From a virus (Duplodnaviria > Caudoviricetes), in the IMG/VR virus record IMGVR_UViG_2933348407_000001, positions 1 through 64,000 of that record: a stretch of DNA of 64,000 bases; one strand, written 5' to 3'. Shown in pieces: positions 1,286 through 64,000 of the stretch; within the stretch, counting starts at the first letter, position 1; each line of letters starts with the position of its first letter. A model generated the notes under the pieces. The model was given only the letters and a program-made list of their open reading frames with translations, did no database searches and was not told where the DNA came from. Both the position numbers and the translations under genes were made by a program.

Positions 1286-1292
1286 CAGGCGT

Positions 1293-47037: not shown

Positions 47038-47043
47038 CGTTCC
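47016..47043 (+). promoter_or_regulatory. ECF-type promoter, copy 4
   Basis: TGTAAC-agaacgcggtcgttga(16)-CGTTCC. Confidence 0.55.
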
Positions 47044-47096
47044 TGCTGTGAAGGGGATTGCGCTTTACGTCAACCCCGCATTGATCCGGAGGAACG

Positions 47097-47606: not shown

Positions 47607-47609
47607 CCA

Positions 47610-47640
47610 CGCGACACTAACTCCGCCCGCTGTCCACTGT
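47610..47640 (+). promoter_or_regulatory. Element-specific promoter motif, copy 4
   Basis: CGCGAC-actaactccgcccgctgtc(19)-CACTGT, 7 nt before GTG 47648. Confidence 0.7.
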
Positions 47641-47647
47641 GCGCGGC

Positions 47648-48001
47648 GTGACTACTCAGCGAACCTCCTGGGCGCTCGCGCGTGAAGCCGCCGGCCTGTT
47701 CCTCACCGCGTTCGGCCTGCTCGGCGTCCTCGTGGCGTTGGGCGCACTCCACTGGGCCGCCGGACTTTCCGCCGCGATGGCCGGTCTCCTCGCCACGGGC
47801 CTGTTCATGCGCCCGAAGCCGACCGCAGCGCGCTGGGCGCACCTTGCCCGTGCCGCCGTCTGCATCCTCGGCTACGGCGGTCTCACCGGCTGCGCGTTCG
47901 CCCTCTGCACCCCCCTGGGCTGGATCGGCGTCGCCCTGGCGGTCGTGCTCCTCGGCCTGTGGCTCACCACCCGTGAGCACGAGGACGAGGGGGCCGCCTG
48001 A
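47648..48001 (+). CDS. Small multi-pass membrane protein preceding portal
   Basis: Four hydrophobic segments; TGATG overlap with portal. Confidence 0.75.
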   Translation: MTTQRTSWALAREAAGLFLTAFGLLGVLVALGALHWAAGLSAAMAGLLATGLFMRPKPTAARWAHLARAAVCILGYGGLTGCAFALCTPLGWIGVALAVVLLGLWLTTREHEDEGAA

Positions 48002-50463
48002 TGCCCCGCCAGTTCCTCCCGACGCTCCGGGGACTCCTCGTACCGCGCTTGGCTGCTCCCCCGCCCACACCGACCGCTGAGACCAAGGACCTGCTCGCGG
48101 GCAACGCCTACGTGTCGATGACGTACGCCGGCGTCACCAACGTGTGGGGCACGCCCGGCCGCGCGGACGGCTGGGACATGGAACGCGTCATCGTCGAGGG
48201 CTACGAGCGCTCCATCTGGACCTTCAAGTCCATCGAGGCGATCAGTAAGCACGCCAGCACCCTCCCGATCCAGATCGGCCGGGGCGGGGACGAACGGCGC
48301 TTCGAGGAGACCCTCGACGACCACCCGCTGCTGAAGCTGCTCAACAAGAAGGCCAATCCGCTCGAGACCGGCGATGTCTTCAAGAAGCGGCTGAGCGCAC
48401 AGCTCCTTCTGTCGAAGAAGGGCGTCTTCATCGAGAAGACCTACAGCCGCGGCGGCAACCTCGTACGCCTCGACCTGCTTCCGCCGGACCGCGTCCAGAT
48501 CATCCCGGACGACCGTAACGCCGACTACGTGAAGCACTTTGAGTTCACGGACTACAGCGGCCACGTCCGGGAGCTGCTGCCCAAGCACGTCATATGGATT
48601 CGCGACCCCCACCCTCTCGACCCTTTCTGTGGCGTCACCCCGCTCGAAGCGGCGGGCCTGTCCATCGACTTGGACGTCAAGGCCCGCACCTACAACATCA
48701 GTTTTATTGACAATGACGGCAGACCGGGCGGAATTGTCGGTATCGACCTGGAAGGAGTCGACCAGCGCGAAGTCGACCGCATCCAGAAGCGATTGGCGCC
48801 CGGCGCGCACAGCGCCGGCCAGCTCACCCTCGTTGGCACCGGGCCCGGCGGCGTCACCTACGTCGACACCTCCGCCCGCCCTCGCGAGATGGCCTACGAG
48901 ACGCTGTCCGGCACCTCTAAGGGCGAGATCCTGGCCGCGTTCGGTGTCCCCGAAAGCATCGTCGGCAACGCCTCTGAGCGGACCTACGCGAATGCTGACC
49001 GCGAGGAATACAACTTCTGGGACCACACGGAGCTGCCCCACCTCAACCTGATCGCCTCCGGGTTCGACCCGGACCTCGATGACGAGTGGATCGTCCGCTT
49101 CGACACTTCCAGTGTTCAGGCACTGGAGTTTCCCCGCCGCCAGGCCCGCGAGGAAGCCCGCAAGGAGTGGGAAGCCGGCCTCATCACGATCGACGAGTAC
49201 CGGGAGATCGCGGGGCGACCGGCATTCAACGTCCCACAGTCCCGGGCCCTTTGGATCTCTCCGCAGAAGGCCCCCGTACCCGCCAACGACCAGGACGCCG
49301 CCGCACTGGGCCTCGGCCCCGACCCGGCCGCGGGCGGAACACCCGGAGCGGTGCCCACCGGCGCCCCGCTCCCGCCGGGCACCGCTCCGGACACCGCGGC
49401 CGCCGACGTCGCCGCCGCCCGCGCTCTGGACGCTGGCCCGAGCGCCGCCGCGGATGTCGCCGCCGCACGAGCGCAGGGCACGCCCCTCGCCCTGCCCGCC
49501 GGTTCGACGGCTACCGACGCCGTCGCAGCGGCCCGCGCCGCCACTACCGACAGCGGCCCCGGCGACGCGGCCGCCGACGTCGACCGCGCCCGCAGCGCCC
49601 AGAACGCTGCACTCCCCGGCGACGCCGCCGAGGACGTCGACGCCGCACGCGCCACGGTCGAGACCAAGGCCCTGCCCGAGGACGACGGATACGAGGTCAC
49701 TGACGACGACTTCGACGCTCTGTCCATGGCCGTGGCCGCGGCCGTCACCGCGCTCCTCGCACGCCAGGAAGGCGTCATACTCGCCCGGCTACGCGCTCCG
49801 AAAATCCGCAAGTACACGCGGTACTGGGAGCCCGAGAACGACGACGACGTCCGGCACGTCGACGCCGACCTCGACCAGGACCGTGTTGTCAGCGCCGCCC
49901 GCTGGGCCGAGGAGACCAGCCAGACGCTGACCCCGATCCTCCAGCAGGCGGCCATCGCCACGGCACGCAAGGTCGGCCAGGCACTCACCGGCACCGACGA
50001 AGTCCCGCCGGCCGCGGCAGCGGCCGCCATCGTTACCGCGGCGTACGCCAGCGAGGCCATGACCACGTTCCTCCGTGAACTGGCCACCGCCCTGTTCGAC
50101 GCACAGCACGGAGTACCGACGATCAGCGACCTCGAGAACGCTGTCGCCTTCTTCTACCGCTCCGCGGCCCCCAGCCTGGTGGCACGACTAGCCGAAGCCT
50201 GCGCCGTGGCAACCATCAACGGCGCCGCAGACGCGGCCGCGGAGCACGCCGGCCCCGACGTCGTCCGGACCTGGATCACCCGCGGAGACACCCGCGTACG
50301 GCCCGCCCACAAGGCACTCCACGGCACGACGCTGCCCGTCGGCACCCCGTACACCGTCGACGGTGCCACCCTCCGCTACCCCGGCGACCCCTTCGCCCCC
50401 ATCGCCCTCACGATCAACTGCCGCTGCCGCCTGCACTACGCCACCGACAAGGAGCCCCAGTGA
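48001..50463 (+). CDS. Phage portal protein fused to MuF/gp7-like head morphogenesis domain
   Basis: HPLLKLL..NP, GVTPLEAA, ILAAFGVP, TYANA, GLITIDEYRE (HK97-type portal); C-terminal TWITRGDTRVRPAH..LRYPGDP..INCRC. Confidence 0.88.
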   Translation: MPRQFLPTLRGLLVPRLAAPPPTPTAETKDLLAGNAYVSMTYAGVTNVWGTPGRADGWDMERVIVEGYERSIWTFKSIEAISKHASTLPIQIGRGGDERRFEETLDDHPLLKLLNKKANPLETGDVFKKRLSAQLLLSKKGVFIEKTYSRGGNLVRLDLLPPDRVQIIPDDRNADYVKHFEFTDYSGHVRELLPKHVIWIRDPHPLDPFCGVTPLEAAGLSIDLDVKARTYNISFIDNDGRPGGIVGIDLEGVDQREVDRIQKRLAPGAHSAGQLTLVGTGPGGVTYVDTSARPREMAYETLSGTSKGEILAAFGVPESIVGNASERTYANADREEYNFWDHTELPHLNLIASGFDPDLDDEWIVRFDTSSVQALEFPRRQAREEARKEWEAGLITIDEYREIAGRPAFNVPQSRALWISPQKAPVPANDQDAAALGLGPDPAAGGTPGAVPTGAPLPPGTAPDTAAADVAAARALDAGPSAAADVAAARAQGTPLALPAGSTATDAVAAARAATTDSGPGDAAADVDRARSAQNAALPGDAAEDVDAARATVETKALPEDDGYEVTDDDFDALSMAVAAAVTALLARQEGVILARLRAPKIRKYTRYWEPENDDDVRHVDADLDQDRVVSAARWAEETSQTLTPILQQAAIATARKVGQALTGTDEVPPAAAAAAIVTAAYASEAMTTFLRELATALFDAQHGVPTISDLENAVAFFYRSAAPSLVARLAEACAVATINGAADAAAEHAGPDVVRTWITRGDTRVRPAHKALHGTTLPVGTPYTVDGATLRYPGDPFAPIALTINCRCRLHYATDKEPQ

Positions 50464-50705
50464 GACGCACAGCCAGCTTCATCCGACGGAACCTCAGCGC
50501 GTTTCTCTGGGGCGGCTGGGCGCTGTTCTTCGCGGTCTACGAGACGATCGCGCTGCTCACCAAGAAGGACGACGACACGCTGAGCGAGAACACGCGCAAG
50601 CTGTTCCGCATACGGAGCTCGAAGGCAGGACGCGCCGCGTTCACGGTCATCTTGGGCGGAGGCGCAGCGTGGTTCCTGCTGCACATCCTCACCGAGACGA
50701 TGTAA
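50460..50705 (+). CDS. Small two-TM membrane protein
   Basis: GTGA overlap; two hydrophobic helices. Confidence 0.7.
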   Translation: MRRTASFIRRNLSAFLWGGWALFFAVYETIALLTKKDDDTLSENTRKLFRIRSSKAGRAAFTVILGGGAAWFLLHILTETM

Positions 50706-50774
50706 GCGCGGGCCCGAGGGCGGCTTGCACAATTGTGCAAGAACGATCTTGGGCGCGGAGGGCCGCCCGCAGCG

Positions 50775-50805
50775 CGCGACGCTAACCACCCGCACTGTGC
50801 ATGGT
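50775..50805 (+). promoter_or_regulatory. Element-specific promoter motif, copy 5
   Basis: CGCGAC-gctaaccacccgcactgtg(19)-CATGGT, 7 nt before ATG 50813. Confidence 0.7.
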
Positions 50806-50812
50806 CCGCGCC

Positions 50813-53800
50813 ATGCTGAATCGCCCCACTGCACAGGCTGAGTCGCAGGACCTGAGTCGCGACCTCGAGGTCAAGGTCACGCGCCGGCCGTGGAACCCTG
50901 CCCTGCACCCCCGGGACAGCAAGGGCCGCTTCATCGAGACCGGCGGCGTGGTGAGGACCTGGGGCGGCAAGCTCGCCCGCGTCATCCGCGCGCTCCCCCA
51001 CGACCGCATCCTCGTCCAGGACCAGACCGGCCCGAACGAGTTCAACGGCCGCAGGCACACCACCAGCGCCAAGTGGGTCAGCATGGTCGCGCGCCCCGAC
51101 GGCAGCGCGCCCACCGACGACGAAGAGAAGGTCGCCGAAGAGGACGAGCGGCGCACCCAGGACCCGCGCCGCGGCAACGGCGTAGCCCGCGACGACGACG
51201 GCGACCCGGATACCCCGAACGAGCCTCACGACCAGGACGACAAGGGCCGCCCGATCGGCGACGACGACGGCGACGGCCCGGACAACGATGACGACCAGGA
51301 CGAGCCCGAGGACGGCGCCCATCCGGTCAACGTCGATGCCCTCCCGAACCGGCAGCACGCGGCCGGGGCCCGGCATAAGGACACCGCCGCCGTCCGTCGT
51401 CACTTCACGCAGCTCGCCGAGCAGCCCGGCACGAGCCCCGACATGGCCACGTTCCTGCTCTCGGTGGCCCACGACGACGACCTGCAGACCGCCCCGTCCG
51501 GCCGCCTCGCGATCCTCCGCGACGAGAGGAACGGCCGCTTCTACCTCACGGCAACCGGCACCGGACAGCGCGTCGATGCCGCCGGCGACTTCGACACCGC
51601 TCAGGACGCCGAACGATTCGCCGAACACCTCGACAAGACCGCCGTCAACGGTCAGCTCACCAAGTTCCAGCAGCCGTTCGACTTCTCCGACCCGCAACTG
51701 GACCGGGAGGCCCGCGACTGGCGCACCACCAGGGGAGAGAACATCCAGGGCGCCATCCAGCGGGCCCGAACAGAGTTCGCCGGCACCCCGGCGCCCACGG
51801 CTACGCCGAAGACCTCCGCGGACAACCGGACCGACGGCAGCGGCCAGCGCTTCAGCACTCTCCAGGCCGCTCGCGCCCACTGGCAGCAGCGCCTCGGCCA
51901 GATCAACGACCTTGGCCCGGACAGCCTTCGAGAGCAGCGAGCCGCGCGACACCTCGAAGGACTGATCAGCAACGACCGGATCAAGCTCGTCGGCCGCGGC
52001 CAGTTCGTCGTCGGCCAGGACCAGAACGGCGAGTGGTACCTGGTCGCAACTGGCAACGGCCTGCCCCTCCGCCGTCGGTGGACCTCCCAGCGCGGCGCAC
52101 AGGCATTCGCCGAGTCCTTCGCCGAGAACCCGCCCATGGGAGACGACGGCAAGCCGCTGGACCTGTCGGACCCCAACGTCCGCATCGCAACCTGGCGTTC
52201 CGAGGACAACCGGTCGATCAGTGAGGTCATCGACGCGGCCGCCGAGAAGTTCCAGCGCGAGAACGCCGCAGGGGAACCACCAGCCGTCACCCCGGCGCCG
52301 GCCGCCGTTCCAGAGACGCCCGCCGCTCCGCAGGCGCCGGAGACCCCGGAGGAGCCGCAGGCGCCCGCGCTGCCGGGCAACGCCGAGCCCGTCGAGGGCG
52401 TCGACGGCTACCACTACGTCAACGATGGCGGATCAATCACCCTGTACGGCCCGGACGGACAGGTCGCCGCGACGAGCGAGCGCGGCTACCCGCCGCAGGC
52501 CAAGATCGACGGCGTCACCGTGCCCGTCCCGCAGTACCCGAAGCAGGGCGCCGCGGTGATGGCCCGCCTGCACCGCGCTGCGAAGAACCCGGACCAGCGT
52601 GACCGGATCACTGCGGCGTGGGTCATGAAGCCCGGCAAGGACGGCAAGCCCGCCAAGCGGGTCATGGTCTTCCGGGGCACCATCAAGGGCGACGATCGGG
52701 ACTACGACGCCGTGGGCTCCACCCGCGCCATCAAGTGGGCCCCATCCCTGCGCGCCTACTCGACCCAGTCGAACATGACCGAGGCCACGCGCGATGAGCG
52801 GATCTCGGAGGTCCTGTCCAACCTCGCCCGTCAGGGCCGCAACGTCCACGTCACCGACGAGACCGCTGCCGGCGCCCCGGGCGCCCCGGCCAACGCCGTC
52901 GACGAAACCGAGGCCCTGCGCAAGGCCATCGCCAACGCGGATGACGCCCGCCTGTCGCAGATGAAGTACGAGCGGTGGGGAACGATCAACCGCACCCGCT
53001 CCGAAGCCAACCGCCGACGCCTCAACTCCGAAGTCGAGATGATCGACGACGAGTTGAAGCGCCGGCGCAAGGAGCGGGACGAGGCCGCCGCCCGAGACGC
53101 CACGTCGCTCAGCGACGACGACATCGCCAACCGCATCCGCGAGTCGCAGGAGGAACGCGGAACCTACGGCGTTCGCAAGGGCCAGGAGGCCAACGACGTT
53201 GAGCGGGCCATTTACAGCGAGCGCCGCCGCCGCTCGCAGGCCCTCGTCGACGACGACACCGACCTGACCACGGCCGCCGAGGACGACCTGGCCAAGGCCC
53301 GCGAGACCGTCGCCGAACGCGTCCGCATGCACCAGGCCGCCGGCGACGACCCCGAGGCCGAGCGCACCATGCGCCAGGCCCTGCAGAACCGGCACGACGT
53401 CATCGTCGGCGAGCAGCAACGCCGCCACGCCCAGCAGATCGCCGACCGACCGCCGGTCGTCGACCTCACCGACGAGGAACTGTCGCAGGAGTACAACGAC
53501 TTGCTCCGGCGCGACTTCCGGAAGGCCCCGCCGGAGGCCCAGCAGGTCCTCGAGGGCCGCATGGAGGACGTCAAGCGGGAGCGCCGCGACCGGGAAAAGC
53601 GGGCCATCACCGACCGCGATGCCCCCGAGAACCTGAGCGATGAGGACCTGAAGGAGGAGTACACCGAGCTTCGCCGTACCCGCTCCTCGTACACCGGGAC
53701 CGACGACGTCAAGGCGGCCCGCAAGGAACGTATGGCCGCGCTGGAGGCCGAGCAGAACCGCCGCGACACCACGCCGGAGACTGAGCAGCTCCTCGCCCGC

Positions 53801-56800
53801 GTCGACAACCCCGACGCCAACGGCATGATCAGCATCGACGGCCGCAGCGGGTACGGCTACGTCGACTACCGGGATCAGACGCACGGGTACGCGGGCCGTC
53901 AGCTCGGATGGACCTGGGGCAAGCAGAGACACAGCCACGGAGACACGGCGTACCCGTCTCGTGCCGCGGCCCTGGCCGCGATGGTTCAGGCGTACGACAA
54001 CGACCCCGACACCCGCGGTGAGCGGACCTGGGGCACCAAGCGCCGCGTATTCGTGCCGAAGATGTTCGTCGAGCTGTACCAGAACGAGCGTCTTCGCGAC
54101 CGGCTCGCCGACGCCAGCGAGGAGCGGCAGTTCCTCTACAGCCTGTTCCGGGACCGGTACGGCTGGGACGACGGCGTGAACCCCCTGGTGCCCAGTAACA
54201 AAAAGGGCCACAACATAAAGGGCCGGAACCTGTGGGTGCCCGAAGGCCTCCTCGCCGAGCTGAACCGGGTGACGGAGGAGCTGTCACGGGACATGTCCGT
54301 GCGGGCCACGGACCGGGACGCGGACAGTTCCGACCGACAGAAGGCCAAGACCCGGCTCGCTTCCATCAACGTGGCTCTGCACGGCATTGAGGCGCAGCGC
54401 GAGTCAGTCCGCAAGAATGGCGGGGACGACGACCGGAAGGTCATCTCCCGCGAGGAGATCGAGGCACAGCAGGCCGCGCTCCGTGCAGCGCTGGGAGGCG
54501 ACGATGACGAACATGTTCAGTCCGATGGTCCGGGATCACTGGAGGACGTACCTGCCCAAGGAGTGGGCGGCGATGACCGATCCGGAGGCGTTCGTCGAGA
54601 CGAAGGCCAGGGAGATCGAGACTCAGATTCTGAAGGCCGAGGAGGCTCTGGAGCAGACAGTTCCGGAGCCGACGGAGTACGAGGAGCAGGTCGGCCGGCA
54701 CAAGCAGATCAGGGCGGACGCAACAGCGATGGTCCTGGCGGAGCTTCTGCCGGAGCCGGAGCCCGGGGCGGAGAAGGCGCCGGAGCAGACGCCAATGGAG
54801 AAGCACCTGCAGGAGATCAGGGACCTGATGTACGACGCGTAGCGCGGTTCCGGCCGGACCCGGCCAACGCGCCCAAGGGCGCCCGCGCGCGTGCGACGGC
54901 CAACGTCGAGGCCATTCGCGTCCTCAAGAAGCTGGAGGCAGAGAACCGGCCGGCCACCGACGAGGAGCGCCGTATCCTCGCCCGCTGGTCCGGCTGGGGA
55001 TCGGTGCCGATCCTCTTCGCCAACGAGCCGAACGAGAAGGAGCCCCGCTACCAGCAGGGCGGTACCCGGTACGGCAAGTTCGCCAAGGACCACGAGCGGT
55101 GGTCCGAGTACAGCGACGTCCGCAGCGAGCTGCAGCGCGTGCTCACGCCGGTGGAGTTCCGGCAGGCATCCCGCGGCGTGCTGTCCATGCACTACACGCC
55201 GCAGCCCATCGCCGAGGCGATGTGGGAGGGCCTTCGGGCGTTCGGCTTTGACCGCGGTGACGTCCTCGAAGCCGGTTCCGGCGCGGGCACGTTCTTCGGC
55301 GTCGCTCCGAACGGTGCCCGTCTGACCGGTGTCGAGCTGGACCCGACCACGGCCCGGATCGCCCAGGCGATCTACCCGCACGCCAATGTCCTGAACGAGT
55401 CCTTCGCGGAGACCGACGTCGGTCCCGGCACCTTTGACGCCGCGATCGGCAACGTCCCCTTCGCCCGGGTCCCGTTCGATGACAAGCGGTACCCGGCGGA
55501 GAGCCTGCACAACGGCTTCGTCACCAAGGAGATCGCCCTCGTCCGGCCCGGCGGCATCACCGCCGTCATCACCTCTCGCCAGACCCTCGACTCCAAGGGC
55601 GACAGGGCCCGCCGCCAGATGGCCAAGTACGGCGACCTGGTCGGCGCCGTCCGCCTGCCCTCCGGCGTCTTCACCGACGCCGGCACCGGGGTCACCACCG
55701 ACGTCCTCGTGTTCCGTCGCCGCGAGGACGGCACCGAGCCGGCTGACCCGTCGTGGCTGGACGCCCCCGAACGGGACATCAACGGCACCGCGCACCACAT
55801 CAACGCCTACTTCGACGAGCACCCCGAGCACATCCTCGGCACGCTGACCACGCAGTCCGGCCCGTACGGGCCCGAGGTGACAGTCAAGGGCGACCCGGCC
55901 AAGGCCGCCGAGCAGCTTCGCGCCGCGCTCGACGACATCGCCGCCAAGGCGAAGGCTGACGGCCGCGGCTACGAGCCGCACCCCGACGGCGACAACCGGC
56001 CTCCGGTGCAGCTCCAGACCGCCCGGGAGAAGCACGCGAACGACTGGACGGGCCGCCTGTACGAGGGCGACGACGGCCAGTTCTACCAGCACGTCAACGG
56101 TGCTGAACCGGTCCTGCTGGAGCCGGCCGACGGCAACACCGCCCAACTTCGTGCCCTCATGCAGCTCCGCGACGTCGCCGCCGAGCTGCGCGAGCTGGAC
56201 CGGAAGAACGACGAGGAGGAGCGCGCCGAGGCCCTGCGCGCCCAACTCCGGGACCTGCACGCCGACTACGTCGCCGAGTACGGGCCCCTGTCCAAGCCGG
56301 GCCAGCACCGCACCAAGGGCGGCCGCCCCACGGCATGGGGCTACTTCCGGGCCGACCCGGACGCCGCGGCCGTCCTCGCCCTGGAACGGTGGGACGCCAG
56401 CAAGGGCGAGCCCGCCCTCTCCCGCGTCTTTACCGAGCGCGCCGCCGCTCGCCGACAGCCGCTCTCCTCGACCAACGACCCGAAGGCGGCCCTGGCCGCG
56501 GTCGTTGCTGCCAAGGGTGAAGTGGACCTCGGCGAGATTGCCCGGCTCCTCGACGTCACCCCGCAGGAGGCGGTGAAGCGCCTCGGCAACGAGGTCTTCA
56601 CCGACCCGGAGACCGGCGGCCTCGAACTGGCCGGCGCCTACCTGTCCGGCGCCGTCCGCGACAAGCTCGATGCCGCCCGCAAGGCCGCCGAGCGCGACCC
56701 GGGGTACGCGGTCAACGTAGCCGCGCTGGAGGCCGTTCAGCCGCCGGACCGCACCATCGGCCAGTTCACCCCGGAGATGGGCGCCCACTGGACGCCCCCG

Positions 56801-59800
56801 GAGCTTCTGCAGGGCTTCCTGCGCGAGTACCTGGGCGACCGCACACTCCGCGTCGCGCACGACGACCGGTACGGCTGGGTTCTCAACACCGGCCGCGTGC
56901 CCGAGGCCAACAACGTCATGTACGGCGTCCCGGCCGTCGAGCCCGACCCGGACAAGGGCATCAAGGGCAACAAGGGCAAGAACGCCGTTGAGATCGCCCG
57001 CGCGATCCTCGGCTTCGGCTCGCTGACCGTCTACGAGGACGACAAGCGCAAGGAAGTCGACGAGGCTACGTCACGTCTGATCCGGCAGAAGGCCGATCAG
57101 ATGCGGGCCGAGTTCGCCAAGTACGCCACGGCGAACGCCGAGCGGCTGAGCGTCCTCACCGACTCGTACAACCGCATCATGAACGGGCACATCGTCCGTT
57201 CGTACGAGGGCATGTCGCCCACGCTCGAGGGCTTCACCCCCGACCGCAACCCGCACGCCTGGCAGCTCGCCGGCGCGGCCCGGATGCAGTTCGAGCGGGG
57301 CGTGATCCTCGCCCACGAGGTGGGCCTCGGCAAGACGTCGACGCTCGTCATGGGCACCCAGGCTCTCAAGGCGTCCGGGCAGATCGAAAAGCCCATGGCC
57401 GTGGTGCCCAACCACGTCTCCAAGCAGTTCTACGACGAGGCCCGACTTCTCTACCCGAACGCCGACATCCACCTGATCACTTCGGCGGACCTGGCCGGCG
57501 ACCGGCGAGGCAGCACGCTGGAGTGGCTGCGCGCGAACAAGCCGGACCTGGTCATCTTCACCGAAGAGGCGTTCGGCTCGATCAAGATGAGCCCGGAGGC
57601 TCAGGACGACTACGAGTTCCGGGAGCTGGAGGCGCTGCGCGAGCAGCTTGACCGCCAGTACGAGGACGCCGACAACCCGAACCACCCGTTCATCGTCGCG
57701 AAGATCGAGCAGCGCATCGCGACGGTCAGCAAGAACATCAACAAGAACGCCGCCCCGATGCGGCGGCCGGGCGAGACGTACTGGGACGACCTCGGGTTCG
57801 ACTACTTCGTCGTCGACGAGGCCCACAGGTACAAGGGCGTCGGCTTCCGCTCCAAGGAGGGAGGCGGCGACCCCGCGTCCATCCGCGGCGTCGACCTGCA
57901 CCAGAAGACGACCGATCTGCACCGCCGCCGCCAGGGCCGGGCCACGATCACGCTCGCCACCGGTACGCCGCTGTCGAACAGCATCAGCGAGCAGTTCACC
58001 ATGCTGATGTTCGCGGCGCCGTGGGTGCTGGACGCCTACAAGGCGGGCGCTCCGGACCTGTGGGCCAACACCTTCGGCCGCAAGACCCTGCGCATCGAGA
58101 ACGCGCCCGACGGCTCCGGCCTGCGCGTCGTGGAGCGGTTCTCCGAGTTCCACAACAAGCGCGCCATGAAGACCATGTGGGGCCTGGTCGCGGACACCAA
58201 GCGCGGTGACGACGTCGGCATTCCCCGCCCGAAGCTCAAGGGCGGCAAGCCGAATCTGATCATGGTCGACGCGACGCCCGACCAGAAGAAGCGCCTCAAG
58301 GGGCTCGTCGCCCGCGGCCGCGCGATCCACAACGGTGAGGTCGACCGCCACCAGGACAACATGCTCGCGGTGTCCAACGAGGGCACCAGCGTGGCCCTCG
58401 ACCCGCGGCTCATCGACGCCAAGGCCCCGGCCGGCAACAAGCTCAAGGCCGTCGCAGACCGGCACATCGAGCGCTACTTCCAGCACAAGGACCGGATCTA
58501 TCCGGTCACCCGCGACAGCCTCGTCGACCACCCCGTCCCGGGCGCCCTCCAGATGATCTTCCTGAACGAAGGCGTCCCGGGAGGCAAGAACAAGGGCAAC
58601 TTCGACGCCTACGCCGAACTCAAGCGGCTCATGGTCGCGGGCGGCATCCCCGCGCACAAGATCGCCTTCGTCCAGGACGCCAAGAAGTCCGGCAAGCCCG
58701 AGGACATGACGGAGCTGTTCCGGAAGGCCCGCGAAGGAGAAATCGCGGTCCTCATCGGCTCCAGCGCCGTCGCGGGTACGGGCATGAACGCCCAGGACCG
58801 CATGATCTCCCTCTCGCACGTCGACCTCGACTGGGGCGCCGCGCAGATGGAACAGCGCAACGGCCGCATCCTGCGCTACGGCAACCTGAACCCCGAAGTC
58901 GAGATCGACATCTACGCGACCAAGGGCTCCATGGACGGCTGGAAGGCCGGATTCGTCGCCGCCAAGGCTGAGGGCCTGGTCGACATCCAGCGGCCCGAGC
59001 CGGAAGACGGCGACTCCAGCGACGTCGTCCAGGAGATCGACGGCGCCGAGTTCGACTACGAGACGATGGAAGCCGAGATCGGCGGCAACCCCTTCATGAG
59101 CCAGCTCATGAAGGCGAAGCGCCGTCTCAAGGACCTGGAGATCGACCAGCACAACGAGGCCGCCGAGCGTATCCGCCGCGCCGAAGCCCTCGATGCGCTG
59201 CGCCAGGAAGCCCAGGCCACCCGCGACGGCATCCAGCGCCGCGAGCAGGCCCTGCCCCGCATCCAGGAGGCCGACGACCGGTTCCGCATGACCATCGGCG
59301 GCTCCCCGTATGGCGAGCGCTCCGACGCTGGCAAGGCCCTGCACCGGCAGATCACCTCCCGCCTCCTCGAGCACAATCGTGAGGGCCTGAGCGACTGGCA
59401 CGTCCTTGGCCAGTTCCGCGGCCTGGACTTCGGTGTCCGCACCGAGAAGACAGCGGACGGCAAGCTCGTCGCGCACGTCGGCTTCCCCGACCTGCGGCAC
59501 TCGGACTTTGAGCGGACCGTGGAGGACCTGCAGAAGAAGGGCGCCGGGGCGGGCATGATCACCCGCCTCGGCAACGCCCTCGACAAGGCGCCCGCGTTGC
59601 AGGAGTCGGACCAGGCCAAGGTTCCGGAACTGGACGAGCAGATAGCCCTGCTCCAGTCCGCACACGCGGCCGCGGACCTCACCCCGCAGATCGACCACGC
59701 TCGCAAGCGGTCGAACCTGCTCGAGGAGATCGTCGCCCGCGTCACCAACCTGGACGCGAAGCCGGAGATCGACCCCGACGAACTCGACAAGGAGCGGTAC

Positions 59801-62800
59801 AAGAACAAGGACGACCGCGAGAAGATCGCCAAGGGGCGGCGCGAGGAACGCGAGCCGCTGCAGGCCGCCGTCGACGAGGCCGTCGCGAACCTGCACCGCT
59901 GGGACGAAGAGAACCCGGCACCCGAACAGGACGACACGGTCCGCCTCTCCGAAGACGAGGTGCGCGAAGCCCTCGCCCGCCTCACCCCGGAGCCCAGCAC
60001 CCCCCCGAAGCCGGGCGCCCCGGAGACCAACAACCGCAGTTCCGCGGATGCCGACACCGACGTCGACGAGCCGAACCCTGACGAGACGGAGGCACCTGAC
60101 ACCACCGGATCAGGCAGCAGCGACGAGCCGCCGGCCGCCGTACCGGCCGAGGGTGACACCGACGCCCAGAACGACGGCCAGGACCAGGACGACGTCGTTC
60201 GCCTCTCCGAGGAAGAGGTGAACGACACCCTCGCCAGCATCCAGCCGGACGCCGACACGACCGGAGGCGACGAGCCGGACGAGCCGCTGCGGTACGCGTG
60301 GGACAAGCCCGAGGACTTCGTCACCCTGACCATGCCGGCTGCACTCGCCGACTTCCTCAACGTCGACGAGACCGCCGCCATGGAGGACCCCGACACCCGA
60401 AAGGCCCTCAAGGAGGCCAAGCCCGGCCGCCGCGGCACACTCCAGGTGACCGGCCCGATCGAGGTACACCGCGCCCTCCTCCAGTGGGCATGGACGCTCG
60501 AGGGCGGCGAAGGACTGGAGTCCGACCCCAGCGATGTCCGGGCCTACAAGGCGTACGCCAAGCGCATCGACGAGGCCGACGCAGACCTGCAGCGCCGTCG
60601 CGCCGAGCGGGAGGCCGCGGCCTCCGCGGACACCGACGAGAACAACACCCCGGACACGGACAACACGAACGACGGCGGCAGCGACGCGCCGCCGGCCGAC
60701 GCCCCCAGCACGGCTGAGCCGGACGGCGAGGACGACCAGGACCAGAGCACCGACGACGACACGGAGGCCAGTGACACCGTCACCCTGACTCCGGATGAGG
60801 TGTCCGACCAGCTCGACGCTGTACGCCCCGAGGGGTCCAAGGCTCCGTCCTCGATGGACGATGGCGAGATCCGCGACGAGATCGTCGACCTGATGGGCCG
60901 TGAGATGGCGGATGAGCTGTCCGGCGCGGACCGTACCCGCCTGCAGGTCCTGGAGGCGGAGGAGGCCCGCCGTGCCGGCCGGGCCCCGAAGCCGGAGCCC
61001 AAGCCGAAGCGGACGACCGAGGAGCCCGGGGGACTCTTCGACGTCGACCAGCCCACCACCCAGCAGCCGAGCAGCGCCGCCGATGTCGACAACCCTGAGG
61101 ACCAGCCCGACGACCTCTTCGGCACGCCGGACATGATCGCCGACGCCGAGGGCCGCAGCACCGAGGGCCTGCGCCCGGCGCGCATGCGCAACGCCGCCGA
61201 CTTGGAGCAGGGCGACCGGTACACCGACGCAGACGGCCGCACGCACACCGTGTCCGAACCGCCGGTCAAGACGCCTCGTGGCCGGACTCGCATCGTCACC
61301 GACGACGGCGAGGAGCGCTTCTACAACGCCGACGCCCAGGTGCGCCTGCGCTACCCGGACGAGGAGATCCCCGACAACGAGACCGACGAGCGGTCCGCCG
61401 ACGACGATGCGGACAACGTCCCGGCCGTCGACGAACCGGAGACCTCCGAGCCGGACGTCGACGGGACTCCCGCCGACGAGCCGGAGTTCACCCCCGACAG
61501 CTACCGCAGCAGCGCCAAGGACCGCGCCGACCGCATGACCGGCCTCATCGACCAGGCCACCGACGGGGCAGGCGGTGACGAGCTGCCCGAGGTCAGCGAG
61601 GTCCGTGATGCGTTGGGCAGGGCCGAGGACTCCGACGACCCGGACGCCGAGCTGCGTTCCGCCGCCGACCGGCTCGACGACCTCGCAGAGATGTATGAGC
61701 TGGGAGGCCCCGACGGAGAGCGCGCCGCAGACCTGTTCCGGCAGGCCGCCCGCATCGCGAGGGGTGAGGACGAGGACGATCGCCGCGGCGACGACGACCG
61801 CAACGAGGACGACAGCGAAGCCCCCGACGCTACGAACCAGGACTCCGAGGAGGACCAGGACGACGACGAGGAACGCCAGCAGCGTCGGAATGGGGACGCG
61901 GACAGCGACGCCGCCGACCCGGACGGTGCCCCCGACGGAGGCGGCGCTGGCACCCCGGCCGCTCCCACCGACGAGGAGGACGAGGACGGCAGCCCCGACG
62001 ATGTGCCCGACAACTCCGACGACGAGCAGGACGAGCCGGAGGCCGAGGAAGACGACGAGCAGGACGACCGTCGCCGACGTCGCCGTCGGCGTCGCCGCAA
62101 CGGCGGTGGCGGCAGCGGCGGCCCCAGCGGGCCCGGCCTGCCGCACCTGAACCTGCCCGACCTCAACACGCCGGACACCGGAGGCGCCGACGGCAACGGG
62201 GATGGCGGAGACGGCCGCGGTACGCGCGACCGCGGGCGGACCCCTGTACGGCACAGCGACGTCAATTCGCTGCGCCGCGCCTGGAAGAACGGCGATGGGC
62301 TCACTCCTGCCGAGGACACTCCGCAGCGGCGCGAGGCCCTGGCACAGGCGGCCGACCGGGACGGCTTGGCTCTGTCTCCGGGCGGGGGCCTGGTGACGTG
62401 GCCCGAACAGCAGGAAGACGGCACCACCCTGTGGCGCTTCGCCCAGGCACGCAACGGCGCCAACCTGACCGGACTGTCCCTGACCACCGAAGACCCCGAA
62501 GAGGCCCGCGCGCTCGCAGGCCGCTTCGAGGAGATCACCGGTCGCGACGGGCAGCCCTTCGACTGGCAGCAGGCGTGGGGCCCGAGCACCGTCGGGCAGT
62601 GGCGCGACGGGGAGGGCCGCAACCTGCAGCGGGCGCTCCAGGCCGTCCTCGACGACTTCGAGCAGCAGCGGGACGCCTCCGCCCAGCCGGAGCCGACGCC
62701 AGAACGGAGGGCGCTGCCAGACGACCTCACCGGCCTCGACGACGACGAGCTGGTCGACGCGTGGAGCAACGACCTCAGCGACGAGGACCAGAAGCGCCTC

Positions 62801-64000
62801 ATGGCGGAGATGGACCGCCGCGACGGCTACACGGACCAGCGCGTTCGTGACGTGCTGCCGGACACCCCGCCAGCCGACGCCGAAGAGGCCGAGCGCCGCG
62901 CAAAGGCCGTCGACGAGGCCCTCGGCTTCGCAGGCGCCGACGTTCCGCGCGTGCGTCGCACCCGTGAGGACATCATCCGTGCGGAGTTCGCCGACTTCGA
63001 CGAGGCCCGCTACCAGGCCGCCATTGCCGCCACGAACGGCTACTTCTACGCCCGGAAGTACAAGTACGGCAGCGGCATCAACGAACGAGAGCTGTTCTCC
63101 GGCGGTGAACTCGCCAAGTTCGGCCGCTGGGAGGAGTACGCCAGCGAGGAACTGAAGGACTGGTACAAGGCCAACGGCGGCCGCATCACGTACAACCAGT
63201 TCCGGCAGACCTACCGGGACAACGACCGCCGAGACCGGCAGCAGTTCGAGGAGGAGCAGCGCCGCCAGGCGGAAGCCGGGCAGACCACGGAGCCCACCAC
63301 CCCGGAGACGGAGCCGTACGACCCGGTCACGCCGCGCTTCGCGGATGAGGCGGCCCTTCGGGATCACATCCGCAGCGGGCAGCTCGACGAGGTGCCCGAA
63401 GACCAGCGTGGAGACGTGCCCTCAGCCGAGGAACGCGCGCAGATCGCCGATGCCGAAAGCACCCAGCTCTCCGACGGCGGCCGACTGCTCATCTACGGCA
63501 ACGAGGCCGGTCGCACCGGCAGCCGCAGCGGGCAGCGGTTCGACGTGGCCCTTCCGGGCAGCATGCAGCCCCTGTTCCGCAGCGGCTTCCACAGCGCCGA
63601 GAAGGCCCGCCAGTACGCCAGCGTCCTCGAGGGCATCAAGGACGCGGACGGCAACCCGTTCCCGTGGGACGCCCCCGACGTCGCCGAGCGCGCCCGCGCG
63701 TTCCGGACCGCCGACGGCAACCGGCTGTTCGACGAGATCACGGAACGCCTGTACGGCTTCAACGACCTCTACGAGCAGTGGAACAGCGACCGCGGCCAGG
63801 CATTGCACCACCGGACGTGGAGCCAGCAGGAAGCCGACTGGAACACCCGCGAGGAGGAAGCCGGCTACTCGATTCCCGTCGACCTGACGGACATTCGCCC
63901 GGGTGACGAAATCAGCTTCCCCGTGGCCACGAGCCGCGGACAGAACACGCGGCCGCAGGACGAGTACGTGGGAACCGTGCACGCTACGGTGACCGGCGAG
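50813..64000 (+). CDS. Giant polyvalent protein (at least 4,396 aa, 3' partial) with DarB-like N6-adenine MTase + SNF2 helicase core
   Basis: Same frame at start, middle and end with no terminated ORF listed in it; WNPALHPRDSKGRF; ANVEAIRVLKKLEAENRPAT..RWSGWG; LEAGSGAG; GNVPF; HEVGLGKT; DEAH; TGTP; QRNGR; alternative start 50801. Confidence 0.9.
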   Translation, partial: MLNRPTAQAESQDLSRDLEVKVTRRPWNPALHPRDSKGRFIETGGVVRTWGGKLARVIRALPHDRILVQDQTGPNEFNGRRHTTSAKWVSMVARPDGSAPTDDEEKVAEEDERRTQDPRRGNGVARDDDGDPDTPNEPHDQDDKGRPIGDDDGDGPDNDDDQDEPEDGAHPVNVDALPNRQHAAGARHKDTAAVRRHFTQLAEQPGTSPDMATFLLSVAHDDDLQTAPSGRLAILRDERNGRFYLTATGTGQRVDAAGDFDTAQDAERFAEHLDKTAVNGQLTKFQQPFDFSDPQLDREARDWRTTRGENIQGAIQRARTEFAGTPAPTATPKTSADNRTDGSGQRFSTLQAARAHWQQRLGQINDLGPDSLREQRAARHLEGLISNDRIKLVGRGQFVVGQDQNGEWYLVATGNGLPLRRRWTSQRGAQAFAESFAENPPMGDDGKPLDLSDPNVRIATWRSEDNRSISEVIDAAAEKFQRENAAGEPPAVTPAPAAVPETPAAPQAPETPEEPQAPALPGNAEPVEGVDGYHYVNDGGSITLYGPDGQVAATSERGYPPQAKIDGVTVPVPQYPKQGAAVMARLHRAAKNPDQRDRITAAWVMKPGKDGKPAKRVMVFRGTIKGDDRDYDAVGSTRAIKWAPSLRAYSTQSNMTEATRDERISEVLSNLARQGRNVHVTDETAAGAPGAPANAVDETEALRKAIANADDARLSQMKYERWGTINRTRSEANRRRLNSEVEMIDDELKRRRKERDEAAARDATSLSDDDIANRIRESQEERGTYGVRKGQEANDVERAIYSERRRRSQALVDDDTDLTTAAEDDLAKARETVAERVRMHQAAGDDPEAERTMRQALQNRHDVIVGEQQRRHAQQIADRPPVVDLTDEELSQEYNDLLRRDFRKAPPEAQQVLEGRMEDVKRERRDREKRAITDRDAPENLSDEDLKEEYTELRRTRSSYTGTDDVKAARKERMAALEAEQNRRDTTPETEQLLARVDNPDANGMISIDGRSGYGYVDYRDQTHGYAGRQLGWTWGKQRHSHGDTAYPSRAAALAAMVQAYDNDPDTRGERTWGTKRRVFVPKMFVELYQNERLRDRLADASEERQFLYSLFRDRYGWDDGVNPLVPSNKKGHNIKGRNLWVPEGLLAELNRVTEELSRDMSVRATDRDADSSDRQKAKTRLASINVALHGIEAQRESVRKNGGDDDRKVISREEIEAQQAALRAALGGDDDEHVQSDGPGSLEDVPAQGVGGDDRSGGVRRDEGQGDRDSDSEGRGGSGADSSGADGVRGAGRPAQADQGGRNSDGPGGASAGAGARGGEGAGADANGEAPAGDQGPDVRRVARFRPDPANAPKGARARATANVEAIRVLKKLEAENRPATDEERRILARWSGWGSVPILFANEPNEKEPRYQQGGTRYGKFAKDHERWSEYSDVRSELQRVLTPVEFRQASRGVLSMHYTPQPIAEAMWEGLRAFGFDRGDVLEAGSGAGTFFGVAPNGARLTGVELDPTTARIAQAIYPHANVLNESFAETDVGPGTFDAAIGNVPFARVPFDDKRYPAESLHNGFVTKEIALVRPGGITAVITSRQTLDSKGDRARRQMAKYGDLVGAVRLPSGVFTDAGTGVTTDVLVFRRREDGTEPADPSWLDAPERDINGTAHHINAYFDEHPEHILGTLTTQSGPYGPEVTVKGDPAKAAEQLRAALDDIAAKAKADGRGYEPHPDGDNRPPVQLQTAREKHANDWTGRLYEGDDGQFYQHVNGAEPVLLEPADGNTAQLRALMQLRDVAAELRELDRKNDEEERAEALRAQLRDLHADYVAEYGPLSKPGQHRTKGGRPTAWGYFRADPDAAAVLALERWDASKGEPALSRVFTERAAARRQPLSSTNDPKAALAAVVAAKGEVDLGEIARLLDVTPQEAVKRLGNEVFTDPETGGLELAGAYLSGAVRDKLDAARKAAERDPGYAVNVAALEAVQPPDRTIGQFTPEMGAHWTPPELLQGFLREYLGDRTLRVAHDDRYGWVLNTGRVPEANNVMYGVPAVEPDPDKGIKGNKGKNAVEIARAILGFGSLTVYEDDKRKEVDEATSRLIRQKADQMRAEFAKYATANAERLSVLTDSYNRIMNGHIVRSYEGMSPTLEGFTPDRNPHAWQLAGAARMQFERGVILAHEVGLGKTSTLVMGTQALKASGQIEKPMAVVPNHVSKQFYDEARLLYPNADIHLITSADLAGDRRGSTLEWLRANKPDLVIFTEEAFGSIKMSPEAQDDYEFRELEALREQLDRQYEDADNPNHPFIVAKIEQRIATVSKNINKNAAPMRRPGETYWDDLGFDYFVVDEAHRYKGVGFRSKEGGGDPASIRGVDLHQKTTDLHRRRQGRATITLATGTPLSNSISEQFTMLMFAAPWVLDAYKAGAPDLWANTFGRKTLRIENAPDGSGLRVVERFSEFHNKRAMKTMWGLVADTKRGDDVGIPRPKLKGGKPNLIMVDATPDQKKRLKGLVARGRAIHNGEVDRHQDNMLAVSNEGTSVALDPRLIDAKAPAGNKLKAVADRHIERYFQHKDRIYPVTRDSLVDHPVPGALQMIFLNEGVPGGKNKGNFDAYAELKRLMVAGGIPAHKIAFVQDAKKSGKPEDMTELFRKAREGEIAVLIGSSAVAGTGMNAQDRMISLSHVDLDWGAAQMEQRNGRILRYGNLNPEVEIDIYATKGSMDGWKAGFVAAKAEGLVDIQRPEPEDGDSSDVVQEIDGAEFDYETMEAEIGGNPFMSQLMKAKRRLKDLEIDQHNEAAERIRRAEALDALRQEAQATRDGIQRREQALPRIQEADDRFRMTIGGSPYGERSDAGKALHRQITSRLLEHNREGLSDWHVLGQFRGLDFGVRTEKTADGKLVAHVGFPDLRHSDFERTVEDLQKKGAGAGMITRLGNALDKAPALQESDQAKVPELDEQIALLQSAHAAADLTPQIDHARKRSNLLEEIVARVTNLDAKPEIDPDELDKERYKNKDDREKIAKGRREEREPLQAAVDEAVANLHRWDEENPAPEQDDTVRLSEDEVREALARLTPEPSTPPKPGAPETNNRSSADADTDVDEPNPDETEAPDTTGSGSSDEPPAAVPAEGDTDAQNDGQDQDDVVRLSEEEVNDTLASIQPDADTTGGDEPDEPLRYAWDKPEDFVTLTMPAALADFLNVDETAAMEDPDTRKALKEAKPGRRGTLQVTGPIEVHRALLQWAWTLEGGEGLESDPSDVRAYKAYAKRIDEADADLQRRRAEREAAASADTDENNTPDTDNTNDGGSDAPPADAPSTAEPDGEDDQDQSTDDDTEASDTVTLTPDEVSDQLDAVRPEGSKAPSSMDDGEIRDEIVDLMGREMADELSGADRTRLQVLEAEEARRAGRAPKPEPKPKRTTEEPGGLFDVDQPTTQQPSSAADVDNPEDQPDDLFGTPDMIADAEGRSTEGLRPARMRNAADLEQGDRYTDADGRTHTVSEPPVKTPRGRTRIVTDDGEERFYNADAQVRLRYPDEEIPDNETDERSADDDADNVPAVDEPETSEPDVDGTPADEPEFTPDSYRSSAKDRADRMTGLIDQATDGAGGDELPEVSEVRDALGRAEDSDDPDAELRSAADRLDDLAEMYELGGPDGERAADLFRQAARIARGEDEDDRRGDDDRNEDDSEAPDATNQDSEEDQDDDEERQQRRNGDADSDAADPDGAPDGGGAGTPAAPTDEEDEDGSPDDVPDNSDDEQDEPEAEEDDEQDDRRRRRRRRRRNGGGGSGGPSGPGLPHLNLPDLNTPDTGGADGNGDGGDGRGTRDRGRTPVRHSDVNSLRRAWKNGDGLTPAEDTPQRREALAQAADRDGLALSPGGGLVTWPEQQEDGTTLWRFAQARNGANLTGLSLTTEDPEEARALAGRFEEITGRDGQPFDWQQAWGPSTVGQWRDGEGRNLQRALQAVLDDFEQQRDASAQPEPTPERRALPDDLTGLDDDELVDAWSNDLSDEDQKRLMAEMDRRDGYTDQRVRDVLPDTPPADAEEAERRAKAVDEALGFAGADVPRVRRTREDIIRAEFADFDEARYQAAIAATNGYFYARKYKYGSGINERELFSGGELAKFGRWEEYASEELKDWYKANGGRITYNQFRQTYRDNDRRDRQQFEEEQRRQAEAGQTTEPTTPETEPYDPVTPRFADEAALRDHIRSGQLDEVPEDQRGDVPSAEERAQIADAESTQLSDGGRLLIYGNEAGRTGSRSGQRFDVALPGSMQPLFRSGFHSAEKARQYASVLEGIKDADGNPFPWDAPDVAERARAFRTADGNRLFDEITERLYGFNDLYEQWNSDRGQALHHRTWSQQEADWNTREEEAGYSIPVDLTDIRPGDEISFPVATSRGQNTRPQDEYVGTVHATVTGE
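54504..54842 (+). CDS. Nested TnpV-like protein (112 aa) in a different frame inside the giant ORF
   Basis: GGAGG RBS + ATG; GC3 bias switches to this frame; HWRTYLPKEWAAMTDPEAF..EYEEQVGRHKQIRADATAMVLAELL. Confidence 0.75.
   Translation: MTNMFSPMVRDHWRTYLPKEWAAMTDPEAFVETKAREIETQILKAEEALEQTVPEPTEYEEQVGRHKQIRADATAMVLAELLPEPEPGAEKAPEQTPMEKHLQEIRDLMYDA

Follow-up and report, generated by a model that had tools for sequence, protein, structure and literature searches.

A giant gene beside the portal gene of a prophage: a predicted carrier protein with a swappable, DarB-like methylase-helicase payload

The DNA analyzed here is a 64,000-nt stretch (the window) of IMG/VR virus record IMGVR_UViG_2933348407_000001 (Duplodnaviria; Caudoviricetes), namely, bases 1-64000 of a 108,523-bp record that is classed as a provirus. 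At the 3' end of the window, downstream of a portal-MuF fusion gene, lies a giant open reading frame (ORF), and the protein of 5,680 amino acids (aa) that it encodes is the subject of this report. Judged from the sequences of its Streptomyces relatives, this giant protein is a conserved carrier plus a swappable payload, the payload in this case being a predicted DNA methylase-helicase pair that resembles phage P1 DarB. We favor, with a probability of roughly 0.55, a reading in which the protein is a polyvalent carrier with its payload that is packaged and injected, the DarB-like pair protecting the entering DNA. Giant polyvalent proteins are thought to deliver ready-made counterdefense enzymes with phage DNA; few of them have been shown in particles, and a loading route is known only for P1 and T4.

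The giant ORF opens at ATG 50801 (+ strand), is unterminated at the window end after 4,400 codons, and continues in the record to a TGA stop at 67841-67843, giving, when counted from 50801, 5,680 aa, a mass of 621.6 kDa, and an isoelectric point (pI) of 4.85. The initial annotation had described an unterminated ORF from 50813, had proposed extending it to its stop, and had named in-frame stops that split it into ordinary genes as one observation that would overturn it. The frame is indeed open to the window end and closes as just described; no such stops occur in it or in the homologous frames of 10 of 10 relatives' genomes, which remain open for 3,990-5,781 aa with zero stops. ATG 50813 is the second ATG of the ORF (M5) and is probably the true start of the gene, since it is the sole start codon kept in 14 of 14 aligned relatives.

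Could so long a frame nevertheless be an artefact, with several ordinary genes run together through mistakes in sequencing or assembly, or else a pseudogene decaying in a defunct prophage? High-GC DNA yields long spurious frames, and the other frames of this region do hold ORFs of up to 1,085 aa in antisense; in one relative (L020), the frame at the C-terminal match is open for just 595 aa. However, a coding signature runs along the entire giant frame, with GC content at third codon positions (GC3) of 0.84-0.96 in 18 of 19 intervals of 900 nt (the remaining interval, GC3 0.71, covers a G/D/S-rich linker). The stop-free frames cited above come from 10 independent genomes, 122 full-size relatives were found, and a cultured phage, Gilgamesh, has an annotated 4,624-aa gene of this kind. 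The artefact reading is practically excluded, and the giant ORF is confirmed as real and as coding throughout. As for L020 (Streptomyces sp.), separate short protein calls lie on the same 47,969-bp contig, and this copy may be broken.

The predicted enzyme pair is a DarB-like N6-adenine methyltransferase and an SNF2 ATPase, with catalytic motifs intact. The profile phrog_10089 ("DarB-like antirestriction," also labeled "N12 class adenine-specific DNA methylase") matches aa ~1432-2854 with an E value of 5.1e-250 and, in addition, aa 1180-1500 with an E value of 1.2e-28. The methylase motifs, of the gamma class of N6-adenine enzymes, lie at aa 1488-1560: the SAM-binding motif I, VLEAGSGAGTFFG, aligns with TLEPSAGTGVF of P1 DarB and VLEPGMGIGLF of Bcep22 gp75, and the catalytic motif IV reads GNVPFA, versus GNVPFG and GNPPFA, respectively. 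The helicase motifs (aa 2175-2695) include an intact Walker A motif (GLGKTS), DEAH box (VVDEAH), and motif VI (QRNGRILRYG), which align with those of DarB and gp75. These matches uphold the likeness to DarB that had been noticed from the sequence, and the motifs fall inside both of the ranges first proposed, ~54840-55950 for the methylase and ~57250-59100 for the helicase. In Pfam, SNF2-rel_dom (E 1.1e-5; 25.2 bits versus a cut-off of 24.9) and ResIII (E 9e-5; 22.9 bits versus 22.5) are reported, with Helicase_C (E 1.3e-4), Methyltransf_25, and Eco57I below their cut-offs. The best partial NCBIfam matches of the helicase, all far below cut-offs, are an anti-phage phospholipase D-like protein, DISARM DrmD, and DpdE. 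A helical LPD36 domain with a GxG(G/A/S) motif is described as preceding dyad methylases (Iyer 2017, PMC5512222); here, a GWGS motif stands at about aa 1400, in a helical lead-in within the PHROG match, and the Pfam scan gave no LPD36 match. When the enzyme block was compared by tblastn with 50,697 phage records, 140 matched, 73 of them with ≥80% of the block covered, at 27-32% identity; these records are chiefly giant proteins of Bcep22-like, PEp14-like, and SopranoGao-like podophages.

How is this pair distributed among the relatives of the giant protein? When aa 1-350 were searched against proteins 3,124-9,940 aa in length, 122 matches were returned, all from Streptomyces, of which 120 were listed; counts out of 120 refer to these. 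By BLAST coverage, the methylase-helicase block is present in 70 of the 120 and absent in 50. A UvrD-type helicase occurs in 7 of the 50 pair-less relatives, and ~43 have no recognized enzyme in precomputed Pfam assignments; the Pfam families precomputed on relatives include PF28553/4/5. In the pair-less class, a carrier module that we call M1 is found at aa ~510-1010, straight after the N-terminal part, and other sequence lies between it and a further carrier module, M2, which is covered in 85-100% of relatives of both classes. With the carrier universal and the payload variable in the family, the arrangement reads as a conserved carrier with a swappable payload; and since 50 of 120 relatives keep the carrier without the enzyme pair, the conserved role of the protein is something other than anti-restriction. 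Searches for stand-alone versions of the terminal modules among shorter proteins gave 32 matches for the N-terminal module and 28 for the C-terminal module, all of them fragments of the same family. One carrier with different payloads offers a natural experiment for telling carrier function from payload function.

The family numbers 122 members or more, and one of these belongs to a cultured phage, Gilgamesh, which plates on S. lividans. Gilgamesh gp48 (MN234216; 4,624 aa; "hypothetical protein") is a true positional counterpart of the giant protein, encoded after a portal-MuF gene and a small membrane-protein gene. The two proteins share aa 1-348 (68% identity), M1 (54%, aligned to gp48 aa 658-996), M2 (46%), a barrel region (69%), and the C terminus (77%), and both have zero cysteine and the N-terminal peptide tag described below. 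Unlike the giant protein, gp48 is without the whole methylase-helicase block, has no Pfam or PHROG match at all, and carries other sequence between M1 and M2. A literature search found no paper on phage Gilgamesh. The giant-gene family as a whole belongs to Streptomyces siphophage elements of roughly 125-130 kb that are related to Gilgamesh. Among the 120 listed relatives, 47 lie on contigs of 122-134 kb, a size like that of the complete Gilgamesh genome (129,136 bp), as do 9 of the 15 genome loci; one such contig is labeled a plasmid (S. subrutilus, 124,398 bp). Other relatives are located on contigs as large as a chromosome, one of them at 8.42 Mb of the 10.0-Mb S. flavusporus HC307 chromosome. 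The element may occur in two states, as a free replicon (phage-plasmid or carrier state) and in integrated form.

The tag itself, WNPALHPRDSKGRF, fits the pattern WNPxLHPRDxxGRF. It occurs in one copy in the whole record, is nearly invariant across 14 relatives, and is modeled by AlphaFold with low confidence and no regular structure. A back-translated pattern for NPxLHPRDxxGRF found 51 loci in IMG/VR: 38 are the Streptomyces giant-gene family, and 13 (10 distinct proteins) are unrelated to it beyond the peptide. Eight of these 10 unrelated proteins sit in head modules, which agrees with the initial annotation, where the HPR..GRF peptide had been linked to head-packaged cargo. The tag gene directly follows the portal gene in 5 of the 10 (L031, L064, L077, L040, and L076), lies ~4 kb downstream of it in L075, and is followed by prohead protease and capsid genes in L068; in L051, the tag follows closely on a Mu-type portal domain within one frame. 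The tenth protein (L035) was left out of the neighborhood examination. The payloads in this unrelated set include Alt-like ADP-ribosyltransferases (E 6e-20 and 8e-15) and weak PI3/PI4-kinase-like matches. The L051 ORF (1-2718, minus strand) has its portal domain (E 1e-60), an HPRD..GRF tag at aa 456, and >450 further residues, so that portal and tag-led cargo appear to be fused.

A tag profile of 36 columns, built from 12 sequence windows and searched against 1.84 billion representative proteins, matched 395 protein clusters at E values of ≤1e-3 and 36 at ≤1e-10. The invariant core of the tag is partly circular, because the seed windows were picked by exact pattern; the variants found are not circular. 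The best 150 of the 395 clusters divide into 32 of the Streptomyces giant-gene family (whose members among the profile matches reach ~7,200 aa) and 118 others. Among the latter, 36 have a single copy in the first 60 residues, 3 have a single copy elsewhere, 75 have 2-9 copies at a median spacing of 290 aa, and 4 have no match by regular expression. Leucine at -9 and lysine at -7 each precede about a fifth of 251 internal tag instances, a register that differs from that of the conserved residues upstream of the tag in the giant protein (E23, K25, and R28). A Pfam census of 38 of the 118, taken in E-value order, 300-2,400 aa long, and up to 50,000 residues in all, found ART-PolyVal (5 proteins), ADPrib_exo_Tox (5), Phage_Mu_F (4), DUF7178 (3), Zeta_toxin (3), NUDIX (2), and, once each, InPase, RelA_SpoT, topoisomerase IB, 2H phosphoesterase, Acb1, and Peptidase_S78. 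This is the set of domains that Iyer et al. assign to phage-type polyvalent proteins (PMC5512222), and the usual place of the tag is at the N terminus of such proteins or between their modules. By regular expression, the tag is absent from Bcep22 gp75 and P1 DarB, and a word search of the main texts of PMC5512222 and PMC5576092 (supplements not covered) found no description of it; searches of the literature for the tag returned only irrelevant papers.

We tentatively suggest, at somewhat less than even odds, that the peptide (W/F)(D/N)(P/E)x(L/K/Q)HPR(D/G)xxG(R/K)F is a general, portable address label or protease-processing mark for head-carried proteins and that the Streptomyces family is a payload-swapping vehicle. 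The tag would stand at the N terminus of stand-alone post-portal cargo and would open every module of the fused polyvalent proteins. Were this so, sequence could serve to predict which effectors a phage injects, and attaching the tag might bring foreign cargo into capsids. The peptide links the giant protein to hundreds of head-module cargo proteins and is a testable candidate for a loading or processing signal.

The giant protein also has a peculiar composition, with 0 cysteines in 5,680 aa where ~29 are expected, given 50 cysteines in 9,743 residues (0.51%) of 14 other genes in the record. The same avoidance holds in the family: 105 of 120 relatives have zero cysteine, and 119 of 120 have at most 2. 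Gilgamesh gp48 (0 of 4,624 residues) and the virion-associated Bcep22 gp75 (0 of 4,602) are likewise free of cysteine, and P1 DarB has 9. Within the record, the capsid, tape-measure, and adaptor proteins are cysteine free, and the products of nonstructural genes are not. Near-total cysteine avoidance is a simple sequence mark that may help in recognizing translocated virion cargo.

The gene order around the giant gene places it in a head module. The portal-MuF gene matches Phage_portal (E 1.3e-41), the portal family PHROG 2662 (E 1e-82), and, at aa 736-811, Phage_Mu_F (E 3e-5; 25.1 bits, below the 29.6 cut-off), and it is 84% identical to Gilgamesh gp46, a "portal and MuF-like fusion protein." It is followed by an 81-aa gene, 88% identical to Gilgamesh gp47 ("membrane protein"), and then by the giant gene; the position next to portal-MuF that had first drawn attention is thereby established. 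Downstream come small genes, a gene for a 639-aa "hydrolase" homolog (record 69095-71014), and the major capsid gene. The late region is collinear with gp44-gp65 of Gilgamesh, and the head-module synteny is kept in all relatives examined. The conserved 81-aa protein has two hydrophobic stretches, and its gene is always wedged between the portal-MuF and giant genes.

In the reading that we favor, the carrier would comprise the basic, tag-bearing N-terminal module, four 145-aa domains, SH3/Tudor-like barrels on acidic linkers, and a basic helical C terminus. The giant protein would be made late, alongside the head proteins, and loaded into the procapsid, with the tag marking it for docking or processing close to the portal-MuF protein. 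We posit that it would accompany the DNA out through the tail, unfolded and free of cysteine, and that, in the cell, the methylase-SNF2 pair would track along the incoming DNA and methylate or shield it in cis, as P1 DarB does. A build of small folded domains strung along long acidic linkers, without a membrane helix, suits transit in extended form, and a late-type upstream motif common to the giant gene, the capsid gene, and two tail-region genes also speaks for this reading.

Several considerations weigh on the other side. Packaging, injection, and anti-restriction are inferred for the giant protein and for its family. The virion-proven Bcep22 gp75 and P1 DarB are without tag and carrier, so that their packaging does not carry over by homology in the part that matters; and a 622-kDa chain exceeds any cargo shown to be packaged, the proven ones considered here being of 4.5-4.6 kaa and from podophages. 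P1 DarB depends on DarA, Hdf, DdrA, DdrB, and Ulx (PMC9144972), and no search for such helpers was made here. The anti-restriction pair is, by its distribution, an optional payload and cannot be the conserved function, and the Pfam matches to its domains are marginal, at or below gathering cut-offs. Both AlphaFold models have low confidence overall, with a mean predicted local distance difference test score (pLDDT) of 52 and 51, and one unrelated tag protein (L049) adjoins an integrase, outside a head module.

What, then, would the carrier itself be for? It could have an essential part to play inside the head or in ejection, for instance as an internal core, as an escort of the DNA end, or as a conduit through the thick Gram-positive wall, with the enzymes as opportunistic add-ons of little fitness effect. 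This alternative, which we hold to be rather unlikely, agrees with the favored reading on packaging and places the main function in virion assembly or DNA delivery, not in anti-restriction. It would suit a carrier that is universal among the 120 listed relatives while the payload varies (methylase-helicase in 70, UvrD in 7, no recognized enzyme in ~43), as well as a C-terminal module whose 77% identity to Gilgamesh comes near that of the portal (84%) and capsid (85%), and basic ends that flank an acidic body. ESM Atlas matches of the C terminus to a "DdrB domain protein" (0.86) and Phage_min_cap2 (0.85), both <0.9 and leads at most, point the same way. However, no fold or family ties the carrier to a known ejection, scaffold, or tape-measure protein, and the intact catalytic motifs of the payload, retained in 70 relatives, speak for selection on the enzymes as well. 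We give still less credence to the idea that the giant protein is unpackaged, that is, a factor of the cytoplasm, late or under regulation of its own, that would methylate or remodel phage DNA during replication or counter defenses other than classical restriction. The very large size of the protein is compatible with this idea, as are the partial NCBIfam matches of the helicase to defense-type SNF2 proteins (far below cut-offs) and a palindrome element on both sides of the gene, which could serve as an operator that controls it separately. Against these stand the head-module synteny kept in all relatives examined, an upstream motif in common with the capsid gene, a cysteine avoidance shared with this phage's virion proteins and not with its nonstructural genes, and a tag tied to portal-adjacent genes in unrelated phages; the bracketing palindrome, moreover, is found in just 1 of 10 relatives.

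Table 1. Features of the giant gene and its surroundings (window positions, or record positions where marked)
Feature	Residues (aa)	Position	Strand	Basis
Portal-MuF fusion gene, upstream of giant gene	820 aa	48001..50463	+	Pfam, PHROG, Gilgamesh gp46
Gene between portal and giant genes	81 aa	50460..50705	+	PHROG 3555 (unknown function), E 4e-11
30-bp element GCTTGCACAATTGTGCAAGAACGATCTTGG with perfect 18-bp palindrome CTTGCACAATTGTGCAAG		50723..50752	.	Sequence
Upstream element CAGCGCGCGACGCTAACCAC...TGTGC directly 5' of ATG; candidate late promoter or short leader		50770..50800	+	
Giant ORF, window part	1-4400	50801..64000	+	Frame continues to record 67841-67843
Basic N-terminal module (pI 11.5): tag, then small beta domain	1-105	50801..51115	+	85% mean column identity, 14 sequences
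N-terminal tag WNPALHPRDSKGRF	31-44	50891..50932	+	Sequence, conservation
Acidic stretch, net charge -22	106-186	51116..51358	+	Many invariant columns despite low complexity
Repeat domains R1 and R2, ~145 aa each, alpha/beta	187-333 and 347-489	51359..52267	+	R1 profile hidden Markov model (HMM)
Methylase-helicase-class-specific region	490-1229	52268..54487	+	Coverage among relatives
G/D/S/A-rich low-complexity linker before enzyme block	1230-1340	54488..54820	+	Composition
Predicted N6-adenine methyltransferase with N-terminal helical lead-in	1341-1740	54821..56020	+	PHROG 10089/11801/1685
Inter-domain region	1741-2150	56021..57250	+	Within continuous PHROG 10089 match and Bcep22 gp75 alignment
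Predicted SNF2-type helicase/translocase	2151-2770	57251..59110	+	Pfam, motifs
Post-helicase segment, then acidic linker (net charge -43)	2771-3040, then 3041-3299	59111..60697	+	Charge
Carrier module M1	3300-3560	60698..61480	+	Common to relatives with and without enzyme pair
Very acidic linker with ten-arginine run, net charge -50	3561-3800	61481..62200	+	Poorly conserved
Repeat domain R3, within carrier module M2 (aa ~3800-4150)	3817-3959	62249..62677	+	R1 HMM
Repeat domain R4	4178-4311	63332..63733	+	R1 HMM
Tandem small beta-barrel domains	4511-5020	record 64331-65860, beyond window	+	AlphaFold model
Basic, mostly helical C-terminal module, pI 9.6	5021-5680	record 65861-67840, beyond window	+	Conservation
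Major capsid gene		record 71241-72524		85% to Gilgamesh

Outside the enzymes, the protein is a series of small domains and charged linkers (Table 1). The beta domain of the N-terminal module bears a weak likeness to Tudor/KOW/SH3-type barrels (Z 4-5; model pLDDT ~50-55), and VIA-align on this low-confidence model gave no Z score of ≥5 except two ties at 5.0. A profile HMM built from R1 (pLDDT 66-81 in the AlphaFold model) detects R2, R3, and R4 with independent E values of 1.6e-11, 1.4e-5, and 5.4e-7, respectively, and R1 and R2 also give secondary tblastn matches in relatives. These R domains match no known family, and they surfaced only by HMM, self-BLAST of the giant protein having found no internal repeats. 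All 70 pair-bearing relatives cover most of the region at aa 490-1229, and almost none of the 50 others do; the region has no Pfam, NCBIfam, or PHROG match save a weak one to DUF6158, and an ESM Atlas search with aa 520-1240 gave no usable match. The long acidic linkers pointed out by the initial annotation are confirmed by composition and charge, the net charge over aa 3041-3800 being about -140. A membrane helix prediction on the giant protein found none (best 19-residue hydropathy, 1.2).

In the AlphaFold model of aa 4500-5680, confident beta domains lie at fragment residues 13-106, 190-250, 265-325, and 450-516. The top Foldseek matches of the barrels are the Spt5 tandem KOW and 53BP1/SETDB1 tandem Tudor domains, at low TM-scores, and Foldseek against BFVD found nothing beyond unnamed phage proteins at very low TM-scores. 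The C-terminal module is 73-96% identical across 15 Streptomyces loci and has no PDB, Pfam, or PHROG match; a PDB sequence profile search with the C-terminal 1,181 aa gave a single match, which, at an E value of 0.14, is not meaningful. Most relatives among the compared loci (L008 and L011-L019) have an extra small barrel, with the consensus ...GDVIDAPVSRTGYQ.NGHRRLTII..., that separates the barrel region from the C-terminal module. The giant protein described here is without it, and barrel number varies within the family.

Upstream of the giant gene, the core CAGCGCGCGAC lies 30 nt before the ATG. Further copies on the + strand stand ahead of the capsid gene (record 71120) and of tail-region genes (78556 and 84449), and the form of the motif before the four late genes is CAGCGCGCGAC(R)(Y)(W)AA. 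The shared motif that had been claimed as a promoter for this region does exist as an upstream sequence, before the giant gene and three other late genes, but the window contains just one of the four copies. All 10 of 10 relatives have CGCGACRYTAA...TGCATG ahead of the giant gene. A sigma-70 promoter scan of 47000-51500 returned 0 sites. There is no GGAGG (Shine-Dalgarno) ahead of the giant ATG, because of which the transcript may be leaderless or short-leadered. An identical second copy of the 30-bp palindrome element occurs just 3' of the giant gene (record 68131-68160), and an inverted variant lies at record ~74160-74182. The element could be an operator or a small mobile repeat; since just 1 of 10 relatives has it ahead of the giant gene, we rejected a family-wide operator. 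Farther upstream of the head module, at 42212-47037 of the window, lie a UDP-glucose dehydrogenase-like gene (737 aa; Pfam E 3e-30, 9e-29, and 7e-15) and a GT4 glycosyltransferase gene (E 6e-24, plus a weaker GT4-conflict match), which suggests sugar modification of DNA or of the cell surface.

How does the giant protein compare with known systems? Polyvalent proteins of phages and conjugative elements (Iyer, Burroughs, Anand, de Souza, and Aravind 2017, PMC5512222) combine unrelated activities in one polypeptide and are encoded next to portal-terminase genes; a "DNA methylase-helicase dyad" is a core theme, and the giant actinomycete examples with UvrD and SNF2 include one of 12,242 aa on a Streptomyces plasmid. 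The present protein has a methylase, an SNF2 ATPase, four R domains, barrels, and a C-terminal helical module in one chain, and its gene is a prophage gene beside portal/packaging genes and before the capsid gene. In the phage examples of Iyer 2017, the head anchor (MuF/portal) is usually in the same polypeptide, whereas here the giant gene is separate and MuF is on the portal. MuF polymorphic toxins, or MuF-anchored cargo in the sense of Jamet 2017, with an N-terminal MuF domain in the cargo polypeptide, are a different arrangement, as the giant protein has no MuF match and MuF is the portal C terminus. The carrier modules were not found in the main text of PMC5512222 by word search (supplements not covered).

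The closest likeness of the enzyme block is to the giants of Bcep22-like podophages, which have the same PHROG 10089 match and, as here, are single giant polypeptides encoded in a virion gene block. The block aligns with Bcep22 gp75 (4,602 aa) over 1,467 columns at 32% identity (E 1.6e-153) and is collinear over ~1,400 aa, at 28-32% identity, with gp75, JC1 gp69, and the "PLxRFG protein" relatives of SopranoGao, LASTA, PEp14, and Itty13. JC1 gp69 (4,515 aa), a gp75 homolog, was detected by mass spectrometry with 51 unique peptides in CsCl-purified virions (PMC9144972). The differences are equally clear. Those phages are podophages of Proteobacteria, in which the gene ends the morphogenesis block and is not post-portal, and their records annotate a lytic transglycosylase; outside the enzyme block, gp75 and the giant protein have nothing alike, and the latter has no PLxRFG domain (NCBIfam, four segments) and no match to PL.RFG as a regular expression.

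P1 DarB (2,255 aa) likewise has an N6A methylase followed by an SNF2-type helicase, with the unusual NVPF in motif IV as here, and darB adjoins the portal gene prt. DarB is known to reside in the head and to shield injected DNA in cis against type I restriction (PMC5512222). The alignment with DarB consists of three short stretches at 24-32% identity (E 2e-26, 9e-12, and 6e-9), and DarB is 2.5 times smaller, with no carrier modules and no tag. That the giant protein is much larger than DarB, as first noted, is true (5,680 versus 2,255 aa), but such a size is not unusual, given gp75 (4,602 aa), gp69 (4,515 aa), and relatives of ~7,200 aa. A looser comparison can be made with phage T4, in which a short N-terminal capsid targeting sequence routes internal proteins and Alt into the procapsid. 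In phage N4, the virion RNA polymerase is a cargo of >3,000 aa that is packaged and injected (PMC5512222). The T4 and N4 cargoes offer a possible functional analogy to the giant protein, with no sequence relation. In total, the protein class is already described and common (Iyer 2017; Bcep22, JC1, and P1), and this locus adds a member; what goes beyond the known picture is the way in which the Streptomyces family combines carrier and payload, how the tag is distributed, and how cysteine is avoided.

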